From the NCBI GenBank assembly GCA_902558375.1, contig CACEDQ010000003.1, positions 25,493 through 89,492 of the forward strand: a DNA stretch of 64,000 nucleotides. The letters are read 5' to 3'. The notes under the pieces are model-generated. The model had not been told where the DNA came from. It worked only from the letters and a program-made list of their open reading frames with translations, and made no database searches. Source of the stretch: an uncultured SAR86 cluster bacterium (GTDB taxonomy: Bacteria; Pseudomonadota; Gammaproteobacteria; Magnimaribacterales; D2472). Below, piece by piece: positions 3,244-30,030 of the stretch; position 1 is the stretch's first letter; every line of letters begins with the position of its first letter. The translations under genes and the position numbers were made by a program.

Positions 3244-4308
3244 TTATTCAACAGATGTAATTATTATTTCATCCGAGTCTGTTGGTAATATTACCATAGT
3301 GCCATCATGAGAGGCAGTCCAGTTATCCATGATTTCATTGACACCTCTATACATAATATTTTCCATTAATTGGTTTCTTGGAGCTGGAAGGTGATGATAA
3401 AAAACTAAGTGACCCACATTTGCCTCTTGAGCAGCTTGAACAATTTCTGGAATAGGGGTGTGATAATCTTGAATATCTATAGTTACTTTTGCAGCCATTG
3501 TATTACCAATTCTTTTTGCATTTTTATTTATTAGATTTACAAGATCAAGGGACATAGATTCATGGAATAGAACATCAACATTTTTAGAATTATTAACTAG
3601 ATTTACATCATAGATAGTATCGCCACTTATACTTATAGATCTGTCTTTATAATCAATTCTATATCCTAATGCAGGATCAACAGGATCATGAGAAACACTA
3701 TATGCTGTAATTTTTAGATCCCCTTCATCAATTAATATAGGACTATCTAAATCAACAGTATGTGTATCAAAACCAGCCACCTCTAATGGAGCAACAGTAT
3801 CTCCATGATGCTCGTTTCTAAAAAAATAATCTTTTGTAAAAGCAAGTTCTATACCATCTGTAAGCATTTGAACCCCCTCAGGCCCATATACTTTTTGCTT
3901 AGACTTTCTTCCGCCATTAATCCAAGTTGCTTGATGAAAATCAGCGATATCAAAGATATGGTCAGAATGCAGGTGGGTATAAAATATTCCCTTAACCCTA
4001 TCCCATGGTGTATTCCAATCAGTAAGATTTTGAGCACTGCCTCCACCGGTATCAAATATAAAAATATTTTCTCCTGCTTGAACTAAAATGCATGTTTCAG
4101 CTCTGTCTGGTGCTGGAATAGGTGCTCTTGAACCACAAACTACCGCAGTCAAAGTATCTTTTTCTGGTAAATAAGATGAGGGAGCAGCTAAATTTTCTAT
4201 TGCTGATTCTAACAACTTGTCTTGAAAGGCAGGTTGCCTTAAAAGGATGAACACTGTTAATACTAATATAATTAGAATTATAAATAGATATTTTAAAAAC
4301 TTTTTCAT
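3244..4308 (-). CDS. MBL-fold metallo-hydrolase with N-terminal signal anchor
   Basis: HxHxDH motif (YTHLHSDH). I moved the start to ATG 4308 (MKKFLKYLFIILIILVL...), which is preceded by GGAG at 4315-4318. The track's longer N-terminus has no RBS support. Confidence 0.7.
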   Translation of the reverse strand: MKKFLKYLFIILIILVLTVFILLRQPAFQDKLLESAIENLAAPSSYLPEKDTLTAVVCGSRAPIPAPDRAETCILVQAGENIFIFDTGGGSAQNLTDWNTPWDRVKGIFYTHLHSDHIFDIADFHQATWINGGRKSKQKVYGPEGVQMLTDGIELAFTKDYFFRNEHHGDTVAPLEVAGFDTHTVDLDSPILIDEGDLKITAYSVSHDPVDPALGYRIDYKDRSISISGDTIYDVNLVNNSKNVDVLFHESMSLDLVNLINKNAKRIGNTMAAKVTIDIQDYHTPIPEIVQAAQEANVGHLVFYHHLPAPRNQLMENIMYRGVNEIMDNWTASHDGTMVILPTDSDEIIITSVE

Positions 4309-4443
4309 CAAATTCTCCAGTTTTATTAAATAGTACACCTCGCGACATACCGTGTATATTAAATTGCTTGTAACTACGTTGTGCAAAAAAACTCAATGAA
4401 CTAATATAGATGTCTATTTTTACTATCTATTAAGGGGATAAAC

Positions 4444-6032: not shown

Positions 6033-6383
6033 ATGAGTGCATTCAAGATTTTTCATAATTCAAGATGCAGCAAATCAAGACAAGCTCTTCGAATACTTCA
6101 AGACAATAACTGTGATATTGAAATTATTAACTATCTTGAGACAGAACTAGATGTATCTCTGATTAAAGATGTCTTAAAAAAATTGTCTTTAAAACCAAGA
6201 GATATTTTAAGAACAAGCGAGCAGGACTACAAAGACAACAATCTAAAAGAAGATAATTTATCTGATGATGATCTAATTGACTACATGATCAAATATCCTA
6301 AATTGATTGAGAGACCTATTGTAATTAAGGGACACAAGGCTGTTTTAGGAAGGCCACCAGAAAATGTGTTTGAACTAATCTAG
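6033..6383 (+). CDS. ArsC/Spx-family reductase-like protein
   Basis: N-terminal FHNSRCSKSRQAL motif and C-terminal IERPIV are typical of the glutaredoxin-type ArsC/YffB family. 116 aa. Confidence 0.75.
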   Translation: MSAFKIFHNSRCSKSRQALRILQDNNCDIEIINYLETELDVSLIKDVLKKLSLKPRDILRTSEQDYKDNNLKEDNLSDDDLIDYMIKYPKLIERPIVIKGHKAVLGRPPENVFELI

Positions 6384-6767
6384 TTCGCCGTCTTTCCTTA
6401 ATTTTTCTCTTATTTTTGTTGCACTTATATTAGTTATTGATTCTTCAAAAATTTCTTCTTCAAAGACATAGCCAACACCGCGACCATAAGATATATTTAC
6501 TATGTTTGGAACAAGCATAATTTCATATTCCATACCTTTTTTAAACCCATCCCTAGATAAACCTTCTTCTATATTTTTACAAACGGTTTCCCAATCAAAA
6601 GGATTGTCATCTTGACCACTTCCACCTGATGATCCTTGAACATCTCTCACTTGAATAATGACTTGACCAGTTTTTGCAACACATCGTTTAAATAGCTCTT
6701 GATGGCCTTGGTGCCATGGTTGCCATCTGCCTAGCATTTGAACAGTTGGTTTTTTCCAATCAAACAT
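6375..6767 (-). CDS. minimal (130 aa) HxGH cytidylyl/adenylyl-transferase superfamily protein
   Basis: GRWQPWHQGH ((H/T)xGH motif) near the N-terminus and ISATKIREKL (ISxTxxR motif) near the C-terminus. TagD-like size. 8-nt overlap with the upstream kinase-like gene. Confidence 0.6.
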   Translation of the reverse strand: MFDWKKPTVQMLGRWQPWHQGHQELFKRCVAKTGQVIIQVRDVQGSSGGSGQDDNPFDWETVCKNIEEGLSRDGFKKGMEYEIMLVPNIVNISYGRGVGYVFEEEIFEESITNISATKIREKLRKDGELD

Positions 6768-7170
6768 TTTTTAATATCTCTTTAGCTATGTTGTGATGAT
6801 TGGTGTCATTCATTTCAGTAATGTGAAAATTAACCTCTTTTGGTTCTTCAAACATTTTATTAGTATCCTCAAATCTGCCTTCTGATATTGTATTCATCCA
6901 TATTGTTATGTCGGGATCAAAGTTAGCTCTGGTTTCAGCAGTAGGGCAAACAAAATCACATATAACGTATCTGTTATTGCTTTTTTCAAAGTCTGCAAAA
7001 GTTTTCATTCTCATGCTTTGTCTAATTCTTCCTTCAGAAGAGAAATCCCAATCATTTGCCATATTTCTTACAACGTCAGCGTTATACCATGCAGCATCTA
7101 TAAGGGGCTGAAGGCGTTCAGCTAGATAGGTTTTACCACTTCCTGGAAGGCCCATGATTAAGATTTTCAT
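6760..7170 (-). CDS. truncated APS-kinase-like P-loop kinase (136 aa)
   Basis: Walker A motif GLPGSGKTYLA. YNADVVRNMANDWDFSSEGRIRQ resembles the APS kinase motif LDGDNxR..L..DLGFS..DR.ENxRR. The start lies 2 nt after the methyltransferase stop. Confidence 0.55.
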   Translation of the reverse strand: MKILIMGLPGSGKTYLAERLQPLIDAAWYNADVVRNMANDWDFSSEGRIRQSMRMKTFADFEKSNNRYVICDFVCPTAETRANFDPDITIWMNTISEGRFEDTNKMFEEPKEVNFHITEMNDTNHHNIAKEILKNV

Positions 7171-7172
7171 AA

Positions 7173-8270
7173 TTATCTGATTTTTTTAATGCTAAAAATT
7201 TCGTTCTTAAAATACATTTTATCTTCTTTGCTAATAGCAGTCTTGATTTTTTTTTGTGCTGCAGGTGATTTTTCTATTTCTTGAATTTCTTTTTCAGGAA
7301 TTTGGCCTATATACAATATGTTTGCCCATTTGGCATCTACGCCATGACCAAATAACTCAGAAACTGTTTGATCAGGACTCCTTTTAAAGTTAAAGGTATA
7401 AAATTTTGGTTTTGAGTAAGAGTATTTATTATTTTCACCCACTGGATTATTTTTTAGGTACTCAATAATATCTTTTGCATTATTAGGGAAGGGGTCTTTT
7501 TCTTTCCATGCAACTTTGATAATTTTTTCTACTGTATCACCTCCACATGAATGTGTTACAAGCAATCTTCCTGATTTATTCAATAATCTCATTAAAGGAG
7601 CAATTACATTATTTACTTTAGTTTTTACTAATGATGCCGCTCTATATGCCTGTGAAGCGATAATCAAATCATAATTATTATTCTCATAATCATTATCTAG
7701 GAACGGTTCAAGATATCTCTTATGATCTTCTCTATAAATTCTTATTATGCAAGGATGGGCATATGAAGTTCGTGATTTATTATCAATTTCAATACCCCAG
7801 TATTTTTTAATAAAGTTATTTAATTTATTAATTTGATTATGAAAATCATAAGAATTATCTTCTTTAAGAATTAGAGTATAGGTTTTAACTTTCTTATTCT
7901 TAATTTTATTATTGTTTTCAATATGACCAAGCTCAGAAAACTTTACATTAGTCATAGTCACCAATAAGTTTGGATGCTCTACAAACCTATCTGGCATTTT
8001 TTCAAGAGTATTTTTTAAATCCTCATAACTTATTTCTTTACCTGTAATTAACAATGAAGTGTATGGATGATGTTTATGGAATGTTTTAATAACATTAGAT
8101 TTAACAGTTCCATCCCCAGTTCCAGCATCAAGAATTCTTAAAAAAGTTCTATTTTTTGGCATGGATGCTATGAAAGGTGCAAGCTCCATAGATATAGCTC
8201 TTTTTTCACTTGTATTTTGTATAAATGACAAGTACTTCAACCTGTCATCAAAGAATCTTTTTTTTCCCAT
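7173..8270 (-). CDS. class I SAM-dependent methyltransferase, unknown substrate
   Basis: Motif I ILDAGTGDGT, and an acidic post-I region (ITGKEISYEDL). The N-terminal helical segment and the NVKF motif resemble small-molecule N-methyltransferases; this comparison is from memory only. AGGGG RBS present. Confidence 0.5.
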   Translation of the reverse strand: MGKKRFFDDRLKYLSFIQNTSEKRAISMELAPFIASMPKNRTFLRILDAGTGDGTVKSNVIKTFHKHHPYTSLLITGKEISYEDLKNTLEKMPDRFVEHPNLLVTMTNVKFSELGHIENNNKIKNKKVKTYTLILKEDNSYDFHNQINKLNNFIKKYWGIEIDNKSRTSYAHPCIIRIYREDHKRYLEPFLDNDYENNNYDLIIASQAYRAASLVKTKVNNVIAPLMRLLNKSGRLLVTHSCGGDTVEKIIKVAWKEKDPFPNNAKDIIEYLKNNPVGENNKYSYSKPKFYTFNFKRSPDQTVSELFGHGVDAKWANILYIGQIPEKEIQEIEKSPAAQKKIKTAISKEDKMYFKNEIFSIKKIR

Positions 8271-8376
8271 ATTTTGCCCCTAATTCTTATCATATATTAT
8301 TTTTTAGATTGCTCAATAATCCATTTACGAACGGAATATTTTGAGATTAAAATAATCTTTTTTGGGGAGAAAACTA

Positions 8377-9531
8377 ATGAAAGAAACCAAGTTACCTTTA
8401 TTAATTGGAATTGGCTCAAGGATAAGAAAATCACCTTATTTTGATTCAACAATCAAGTATGGCGTTACTGGATTTACTGTATATAACAAGATGTATCTTC
8501 CATCATCATTTTCTGGGCCTGAAAGTGAATATAGTAGCTTAATAAATGATGTTACTTTCGGTGATTTTGCAGCAGAGAGACAAGTTGAAGTTTCTGGTCC
8601 TGATGCTTATAACTTTATTAGATATATAAATCCAAGAAATTTATCTAAATGTGAAATCGGTGATTGTAAATATATTGTTTTAACTGATAAAGATGGTGGA
8701 ATTATTAATGATGCATGTTTATTAAGACTTGAGCCGAATAAATTTTGGGTTTCTCCAGGAGATGGTGATGTCTTGCTCTGGTTGCAAGGTATAGCAATTA
8801 ATTCTGGTATGGATGTAGATATTCATGAGCCAGATGTTTCTCCTCTTCAAATTAGCGGCCCAAAAGCTGGAAAATTAATCCAAAAACTATTTAATGGTAT
8901 TCATGATGATCTGGGCTATTACAAGGCCAGAGAGACATCTTTAAATAATATACCTATGGTTATTGCTAGAACTGGTTGGAGTGGCGAACTTAGCTATGAG
9001 TTATATCTACAAGATAGAAAAAAGGGTGATGAATTATTTGAAATAGTTCATGAAGCAGCAAAAGAGTTCAATGGTGCTGTTATTGCTCCAAATACAATAA
9101 GAACCATTGAGGGAGGATTGCTCTCCTATCAAAGTGATTTTAGTCGTGAGCATAATCCTTTTACTATTGGTTTGGATAGACTTGTAGACCTAGATCAAAA
9201 CATTGATTTTATTGGTAAAGAAGCTTTAAAGAAAATCAAATCGGAGGGTATCTCAGAAAAATTGGTTGGAGTAGAAATAGATGGCGATCCGATACAAAAG
9301 GTGCCTGAAAATTTTTGGCCAGTATTTGATGAAAATCATAAAAAAATTGGAAGGCTTTCTAGATGTTTTTTTTCGCCAAGACTTAAGAAAAATATTGGCC
9401 TCGCTATCATTGATATTAATTTTGTTGAACCAGGCACACCCTTAGTAATAGAGTCACCCAAAGCACATTTAAATGCACAAGTTCATGAATTACCATGGTT
9501 TCCTGCCGAAAAAAGTACTAATCTAGATTAA
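8377..9531 (+). CDS. dmdA: aminomethyltransferase (GcvT) family protein, DmdA-like (candidate DMSP demethylase)
   Basis: RIRKSPYFDSTIKYGVTGFTVYNKMYLP..., ERQVEVSGPDA..., and HEPDVSPLQISGPKA... GWSGELSYELY resemble DmdA rather than canonical GcvT N-termini. Start set at ATG 8377, after GGGGAGA at 8364-8370. Confidence 0.6.
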   Translation: MKETKLPLLIGIGSRIRKSPYFDSTIKYGVTGFTVYNKMYLPSSFSGPESEYSSLINDVTFGDFAAERQVEVSGPDAYNFIRYINPRNLSKCEIGDCKYIVLTDKDGGIINDACLLRLEPNKFWVSPGDGDVLLWLQGIAINSGMDVDIHEPDVSPLQISGPKAGKLIQKLFNGIHDDLGYYKARETSLNNIPMVIARTGWSGELSYELYLQDRKKGDELFEIVHEAAKEFNGAVIAPNTIRTIEGGLLSYQSDFSREHNPFTIGLDRLVDLDQNIDFIGKEALKKIKSEGISEKLVGVEIDGDPIQKVPENFWPVFDENHKKIGRLSRCFFSPRLKKNIGLAIIDINFVEPGTPLVIESPKAHLNAQVHELPWFPAEKSTNLD

Positions 9532-29891: not shown

Positions 29892-30030
29892 ATGTTTATA
29901 TATATATTTTTGTTGAGTAAATTATTCTATAGCAAACTTGATTTAGTTCAAAAGGTTTAAAATGTTCAAAATTTATCAACGATATCTATATTCTTTCCTT
30001 ATGAATTGATTGAAATAGTATAATAAGAAC

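Follow-up and report, generated by a model that had tools for sequence, protein, structure and literature searches.

In the known 3'-phosphoadenosine 5'-phosphosulfate (PAPS) synthases, such as human PAPSS1/2, the Sat/APS kinase of Aquifex and CysN/CysC, an adenosine 5'-phosphosulfate (APS) kinase domain is coupled to or fused with a transferase of the HxGH superfamily. In human PAPSS1/2 the APS kinase is the N-terminal and the ATP sulfurylase the C-terminal part, and a PAPS synthase totals about 620 amino acids (aa). In this study, we analyzed a locus of an uncultured SAR86 cluster bacterium (contig CACEDQ010000003.1), which lies in a stretch of 64,000 nucleotides (nt) that is called the window hereafter. 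The locus encodes a short APS-kinase-like protein and a minimal HxGH nucleotidyltransferase (NTase), arranged in the same kinase-then-transferase order as in a PAPS synthase, and in related loci this pair is associated with sulfotransferases and CysQ. However, the pair totals only about 260 aa, and its transferase half of 125-130 aa has no PUA-like N-terminal domain. We consider it probable that the two proteins form a split, minimal PAPS synthase, in which the NTase would act as an unrecognised sulfate adenylyltransferase.

Three open reading frames (ORFs) follow each other on the minus strand of the window: 8270..7173 (365 aa, a methyltransferase-like protein), 7170..6760 (136 aa, the kinase) and 6767..6375 (130 aa, the NTase). 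A preliminary description of this DNA had reported three coupled ORFs with a 2-nt gap, an 8-nt overlap and a set of motifs, and this layout is borne out by the ORF map and the sequence. The junction of methyltransferase and kinase reads ...AGA TAA TT ATG..., the junction of kinase and NTase reads ...AAAAATGTTTGATTGG, giving an 8-nt overlap, and the motifs ILDAGTGDGT, GLPGSGKTYLA, YNADVVRNMANDWDFSSEGRIRQ, GRWQPWHQGH and ISATKIREKL are found in the ORFs. The features of the pair are:

6760..7170, minus strand: short-form APS kinase, 136 aa, first gene of the conserved pair (Pfam APS_kinase, PDB profile, alignment)
6375..6767, minus strand: minimal HxGH nucleotidyltransferase (NTase), 130 aa, second gene of the pair, proposed sulfate adenylyltransferase (motifs, profile, model)
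6760..6767, minus strand: 8-nt overlap ATGTTTGA of kinase stop and NTase start, translational coupling (read from the sequence; recurs in genome and viral loci)

The conservation of this arrangement was followed in three scans, from each of which 80 loci were kept: species genomes of GTDB (SAR86, marine Alphaproteobacteria and Pelagibacteraceae including Pelagibacter sp. HIMB1709), viral contigs of IMG/VR, and metagenome contigs, the last scan being seeded with a kinase-NTase fusion. The kinase gene is located immediately 5' of the NTase gene in 75 of the 80 GTDB loci, usually with the same 8-nt overlap, and at least 24 different gene families are found upstream of the pair. The same order was observed in 71 of the 80 viral loci, where the overlap recurs. 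In all 80 loci of the fusion-seeded scan, kinase and NTase form one protein of about 260 aa. Single-protein versions also occur in Xylella phage Sano (gp35), Stenotrophomonas phage DLP6 and related phages, and in PHROG 10255, a phage 'kinase' family of 230 positions, the first half covers the kinase and the second half the NTase. An exhaustive search with the NTase yielded 1,018 clusters at 50% identity, many of them kinase-NTase fusions of about 260 aa, and one Pelagibacter cluster of the family at 90% identity has 11,617 members. Because kinase and NTase occur fused, a chance adjacency of the two is excluded. Their coupling lies far beyond chance, the pair is obligate, and as a unit of two genes it is found widely in SAR86, in SAR11 and in the phages of both. 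Both SAR11 and SAR86 rank among the most abundant bacteria of the ocean. A literature search found no paper on the kinase-NTase pair, which is no proof of absence since the searchable collection is incomplete.

Several variations of the module were observed. In MarineAlpha5_Bin7 (locus L062, 4833-6036), cysQ and the NTase start share an 8-nt overlap and a kinase gene is missing between them, so that here NTase and CysQ are coupled. A DUF2061 membrane protein of about 70 aa (PF09834, E 1e-22) is encoded between kinase and NTase in 13 of the 80 viral loci and adjoins the fused gene in 12 of the 80 metagenome loci (examples are L108:1310-1528, L230:8821-9030 and L216:2468-2683), and one protein, P0387, is a DUF2061-NTase fusion. 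DUF2061 is a third partner of the module and, as a guess, might have a role in sulfate uptake; a literature search on DUF2061 returned nothing informative. In marine T4-like phage contigs (L171-L176, e.g., L172:227-2735) the fused gene is followed by genes for an S-adenosylmethionine (SAM) synthetase with all three MetK Pfam domains and a phosphoribosyltransferase, which is an adenosine/SAM-related cluster. In Xylella phage Sano, gp28 (L007:3202-3879), annotated as cysteine dioxygenase, is located about 3 kb upstream of the fused gp35 in the same early-gene region.

Judged by its sequence, the kinase appears to belong to the APS kinase family in a truncated form. It reaches 27.0 bits with Pfam APS_kinase (PF01583), above the cutoff of 21.1, and stays below the cutoffs of NCBIfam apsK (TIGR00455, 20.8 vs 138.7 bits) and PRK05541 (29.4 vs 127 bits). 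A family profile built from 18 diverse members and run against the PDB matched almost exclusively APS kinases and PAPS-synthase kinase domains (E 3e-14 to 1e-8), the kinase domains of PAPSS1/2 being among the best matches. The kinase aligns with residues 27-115 and 165-186 of the P. chrysogenum APS kinase. The residues G12, K13, D32, R35, F43, Q51, F73 and P76 are invariant in the family and R48 is nearly so; D32, R35, F43, R48, Q51, F73 and P76 were located within these aligned stretches. These positions would correspond to D63, R66, F75, R80, the I-S-P sequence and F165 of APS kinases. They would thereby include the Asp for Mg and the 3'-OH, the Arg residues for the phosphosulfate, both Phe residues that stack on the adenine, and the strand with I-S-P. 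With CysC, the kinase has in common the Walker A motif (GLPGSGKT), the xxD-x-x-R...F-S...R...(I/V)(S/C)P block and the C-terminal F...P stretch. It differs in its length, which is 131-136 aa across the family vs 173-211 aa in the solved APS kinases matched in the PDB, and in the APS-binding block, which is kept apart from an Asn in place of the first Asp of DGD and a Gln in place of the aligned Asn. The lid segment is absent, and the alignment to APS kinases is restricted to residues ~2-85 and a short stretch at the C-terminus. The preliminary description of this protein as APS-kinase-like but truncated was accurate. The conserved APS-kinase positions suggest APS or a very similar molecule as the substrate. 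Databases widely annotate the kinase as cysC or adenylyl-sulfate kinase, also as an auxiliary gene of phages. In addition, the kinase weakly matches Pfam AAA_28 (E 8.5e-4), the NadR kinase family.

For the NTase, a search of the curated families of Pfam and NCBIfam found none above its cutoff. The designation as a minimal HxGH nucleotidyltransferase can be retained. The family is characterized by GR[WFY]QP[WF]HxGH, NPF, PNIxNIxYGRDVGY and ISATxIR, with the HxxH motif (WHQGH) at residues 18-22 and H19 and H22 invariant. The best curated matches, both below their cutoffs, are to archaeal nicotinamide mononucleotide (NMN) adenylyltransferase (NMNAT), namely PRK01153 (32 vs 127 bits) and TIGR01527 (29 vs 181.2 bits). 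A profile of 27 family members, compared with the PDB, matched archaeal NMNAT/NadM over residues ~12-74 (about 65 N-terminal residues) and the ISxTxIR tail (E 1e-11 to 1e-7). With the archaeal-type NMNATs (M. jannaschii MJ0541, the M. thermautotrophicum enzyme and bacterial NadM) the NTase shares GRFQPxHxGH, NPF and ISxTxIR. However, these enzymes have 168-181 aa vs 125-130 aa in the NTase, the PNIxNIxYGRDVGY motif is specific to the NTase, and the context of the NTase is sulfur, not NAD. The profile aligns with residues 5-68 and 108-136 of MJ0541, and the 39 residues in between are reduced to about 15 in the NTase family. Because about 25 NMNAT residues between the aligned stretches are absent, a stretch that presumably forms the NMN pocket and holds the NMN-stacking Trp, the NTase appears to be a stripped HxGH enzyme and not an NMNAT. 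It represents a small family of its own, new and closest to archaeal NMNAT, and fails both on the NMNAT scores and on the central segment. The names given to the NTase in databases (cytidyltransferase, PPAT, FAD synthase, ATP sulfurylase and NMNAT) contradict one another, and therefore it has no established function.

The genes around the pair point to sulfur nucleotides. At least one neighbour that handles APS, PAPS or 3'-phosphoadenosine 5'-phosphate (PAP) was found in 28 of the 80 genome loci. In nine other SAR86 species a Sulfotransfer_3 gene (E 1e-43) is located immediately 5' of the pair, at the position taken by the methyltransferase in the window. Thirteen of the 80 genome loci have cysQ (286 bits) directly 5' of the kinase or in its vicinity, and aprM-aprB-aprA lie at most 4 kb from the pair in 11 alphaproteobacterial or Pelagibacteraceae loci (aprA 999 bits and aprB 193 bits, both above cutoffs). 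Among the fused loci, six carry a second sulfotransferase family (Sulfotransfer_3 67 bits, Sulfotransfer_1 43 bits), in L216 in the overlapping order sulfotransferase-DUF2061-fusion, and seven carry a third, weakly sulfotransferase-like family. Moreover, cysQ follows immediately downstream in L186, a bacterial contig, and aprBA is present in L232, another such contig. APS, PAPS or PAP is handled by four of the neighbouring families, which are independent of each other. In the neighbourhoods examined, genes for CoA, flavins or selenium did not appear, and NAD genes were never found beside the pair. The earlier observation that a transporter or transferase partner is not adjacent holds for the window, but not for its relatives, in which a sulfotransferase stands in place of the methyltransferase. 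A literature search for SAR86 and sulfotransferase found no papers.

Taken as a minimal PAPS synthase, the pair would work as follows. The NTase would move AMP from ATP onto sulfate, yielding APS and pyrophosphate (PPi), and the short APS kinase would phosphorylate the 3'-OH of APS to give PAPS. As in the PAPS synthases known so far, translational coupling or fusion would drive the first step, which is unfavourable. From the gene neighbourhoods, the PAPS would feed sulfotransferases and the by-product PAP would be recycled by CysQ. In reverse, the NTase would convert APS and PPi to ATP and sulfate, and in Pelagibacteraceae, where it is encoded near aprMBA, it could finish the sulfite oxidation by the APS-producing AprBA. 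The methyltransferase would have been inserted upstream in this SAR86 lineage, co-expressed with the module without being a component of it. Both enzyme activities, above all sulfate as the substrate of the NTase, we infer, in the case of sulfate adenylylation from the pairing with an APS-kinase-type enzyme and from the sulfotransferase, cysQ and aprMBA neighbours. A very small NTase also fits a very small substrate.

The preliminary description had offered three analogies, Kennedy/lic-type CDP-alcohol formation, NadR and PAPS synthase, of which the last is the best supported. The order of the first two, phosphorylation followed by nucleotidyl transfer, is probably reversed here, because enzymes of the APS kinase type act at the 3'-OH of a substrate that has been adenylylated beforehand. 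The undescribed pathway suggested before is probably not present; most likely, the locus serves sulfate activation by an undescribed minimal enzyme pair. Whether the 125-135-aa NTase family constitutes a third kind of sulfate adenylyltransferase and, together with the short kinase, the smallest known PAPS synthase, appears to us evenly balanced.

Several observations weigh against a PAPS synthase. The NTase belongs to the same HxGH superfamily as Sat-type ATP sulfurylase and, like sat in other organisms, adjoins apr genes (in Pelagibacteraceae and marine Alphaproteobacteria), but it has no significant sequence match to these enzymes (PF01747 12.1 vs 24.3 bits; TIGR00339 10.5 vs 323 bits) and is about a third as long as the Thermus enzyme with its 346 residues. 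Its closest detectable sequence relatives are NMNAT/NadM, not ATP sulfurylase. It has neither the N-terminal beta-barrel domain nor the GRDHAG sulfate loop of Sat enzymes, to which YGR(D/G)VGY of the NTase is at most a loose positional parallel. Because these score and domain tests failed, the NTase stands outside the Sat family; the unit would function like a PAPS synthase. Structure comparison does not separate the families either. The AlphaFold2 model of the NTase (pLDDT 90.7) gave weak Foldseek matches within the HxGH superfamily over the first ~85 residues, all with E >= 5e-3, and PanC, HldC, GCT, NMNAT, phosphopantetheine adenylyltransferase (PPAT) and Thermus ATP sulfurylase were matched alike. 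The best TM-scores were those of NMNAT (0.50-0.53), and Thermus ATP sulfurylase reached 0.43-0.46. Since the weak matches spread over the families in this way, the fold places the NTase in the HxGH superfamily but does not single out a substrate. With regard to the context, no sulfotransferase, cysQ or apr gene was found in the window itself, and the phage contexts of the pair are mostly without a recognisable sulfur gene. Finally, a sulfurylase is not strictly needed beside AprBA, because APS supplied by AprBA could be converted to PAPS by the kinase alone.

Potentially, the same logic of adenylylation followed by 3'-phosphorylation is applied to another small anion or phosphate ester. The pair might resemble a CoA synthase (PPAT and dephospho-CoA kinase), or it might act on selenate, phosphonate or another acceptor and produce an undescribed 3'-phospho-adenylylated metabolite. 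In line with this, the NTase family has no assigned substrate and is named PPAT, FAD synthase or cytidyltransferase by different sources, PPAT was matched as well as other families in the fold search, sulfur genes were not seen at most phage loci, and the DUF2061 membrane partner accompanies the module. However, the kinase positions discussed above suggest APS or a close analogue, and the four APS-, PAPS- or PAP-handling families are repeatedly adjacent, whereas genes for CoA, flavin or selenium metabolism do not occur in the neighbourhoods examined. The CoA-synthase-like variant was set aside, as its supporting context is absent. Altogether, we regard a different acceptor as unlikely.

A pathway in which all three proteins act on one small molecule, by methylation, phosphorylation and nucleotidylation, has to be weighed against the distribution of the methyltransferase. 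The features upstream of the pair are:

7173..8270, minus strand: class I SAM-dependent small-molecule methyltransferase-like protein, 365 aa, lineage-specific upstream gene (model, Foldseek, motif I)
7171..7172, minus strand: spacer of 2 nt that separates the TAA stop of the methyltransferase from the ATG of the kinase (read from the sequence)
8271..8361, no strand assigned: 91 nt of intergenic DNA separating the operon from a divergent DmdA-like gene of the GcvT family, presumably the promoter region (ORF map)

Searches of the methyltransferase against Pfam, NCBIfam and PDB sequences and profiles returned nothing significant (best Methyltransf_28, 11.9 vs 23.3 bits), and a few of its homologues show faint Methyltransf_31 matches. 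Its AlphaFold2 model, based on 45 homologues (pLDDT 77, pTM 0.81), gave 74 PDB matches with E <= 1e-3 in Foldseek; all 50 listed (E <= 2.5e-4) are methyltransferases, headed by histamine N-methyltransferase (HNMT), RoqN, HvrF, OxaG and SABATH enzymes (E 6e-9 to 1e-6). With HNMT, RoqN, OxaG and HvrF the protein has in common the class I fold with a cap domain as well as the conserved GxGxG and acidic residue after strand 2, but identities are only 9-14% and TM-scores 0.42-0.59. The motif I residues A49, G50, T51, G52 and G54, and E79, the acidic residue after strand 2, are invariant in the 45 homologues. From the model, the protein is a putative small-molecule methyltransferase, and this fold is compatible with a three-enzyme pathway. 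Furthermore, SAR86 homologues of 67-98% identity retain the tight junction with the kinase, as the 2-nt gap of the window or as a 1-nt overlap in relatives (in a sister SAR86 species the methyltransferase ends at 7598, where the kinase starts), and a homologue is located 4.3 kb upstream of the pair in one locus of Pelagibacter HIMB1709 (L082). However, only 10 of the 80 genome loci, all from one subclade of SAR86, have the methyltransferase next to the pair, and none of the 160 viral and fused metagenome loci has it at all. The gene is missing from the identical syntenic site in L011 (7484-7598) and L252 (3888-4001), two otherwise syntenic SAR86 genomes, where a GcvT-like gene, a 113-nt gap, the kinase and the NTase follow each other, which represents a presence/absence polymorphism relative to 7173-8270 of the window. 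In a sister SAR86 group the sulfotransferase occupies its position, and its family is far smaller (245 clusters in word-indexed searches vs ~7,000 and >8,000 for the other two proteins). Because the methyltransferase is mostly absent beside the pair, including from the same syntenic site, conservation concerns the pair as a unit, whereas the trio belongs to one lineage. Thus, of the coupled trio described before, the coupling of kinase and NTase stands and the inclusion of the methyltransferase does not; likewise, the pair is co-conserved in related genomes and the trio is not. The methyltransferase is an accessory add-on in one SAR86 lineage, and a pathway of all three enzymes is quite improbable.

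Least probable, and hardly to be expected, is a NadR-like NAD salvage, in which the kinase would make NMN from nicotinamide riboside and a mini-NMNAT would make NAD, with which phages could replenish their NAD: the NMNAT-like best matches and motifs of the NTase, the weak AAA_28 match of the kinase and the fact that phages carry NAD-salvage genes speak for it, but it is set aside because the NMNAT segment is deleted and the context is sulfur, with NMNAT scores far below the cutoffs and a kinase that is specifically APS-kinase-like, including the aligned APS-binding positions.

In the surroundings of the operon, one sigma-70-like site was predicted at 8316..8289 on the minus strand, within a region in which promoter-like sites occur at chance level. 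A terminator scan near the operon found none, and an Rfam search of the window and the operon surroundings found no riboswitch or other RNA, the sole match being a chance-level group II intron (E 0.21). The gene divergent from the operon (window 8362-9531, plus strand) encodes a GcvT-family protein, whose best NCBIfam match is the dimethylsulfoniopropionate demethylase DmdA, with 330 bits where the cutoff is 410 bits; in some Pelagibacter loci, too, genes of the GcvT family recur near the kinase-NTase pair (cluster c5). A metallo-beta-lactamase-fold hydrolase is encoded at 3244-4386 on the minus strand of the window. Its syntenic copies match Pfam Anti-Pycsar_Apyc1 and Lactamase_B, and its NCBIfam matches, GntH and RNase Z, are both sub-threshold. 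At about 30 kb (window ~29900-30030) both GC skew and gene orientation flip, with genes from 10.5 to 29.9 kb on the minus strand and from 30 to 56.9 kb on the plus strand. This flip resembles a replication origin or terminus; an origin is unsupported, since DnaA-box-like sites are not enriched (19 vs 21.6 expected).

Pelagibacter lacks cysDNHIJ and sat, yet possesses 'cysC', cysQ and aprBA, and cysC and aprA show an identical presence/absence pattern in a table of seven strains (PMC5069961). The sulfur metabolism of SAR11 and SAR86, which has AprBA, an orphan 'cysC' and CysQ but neither sat nor cysDN, is regarded as incomplete (PMC5069961, PMC12636525), and the pathway was still described so in 2025 (PMC12636525). 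In sulfur oxidisers, sat adjoins aprBA (PMC3779200). It is tempting to speculate that the NTase could be the 'missing sat' of SAR11. If so, it would complete the AprBA-dependent oxidation of sulfite in these bacteria, which would close the pathway gap and explain the disposal of the APS made from sulfite, and the pair would be the source of PAPS for the sulfotransferases of SAR11 and SAR86. For the HxGH nucleotidyltransferases, the NTase, an abundant family that nevertheless bears contradictory database names, would set a lower size limit. Phage 'cysC' genes have been reported to be abundant and transcribed in lakes, and a partner domain is not mentioned (PMC10914622). The pair would be the real content of this widespread auxiliary gene in freshwater and marine viromes, and the reading of the phage 'cysC' would change, because phages would carry a complete sulfate-activating unit and not one step.

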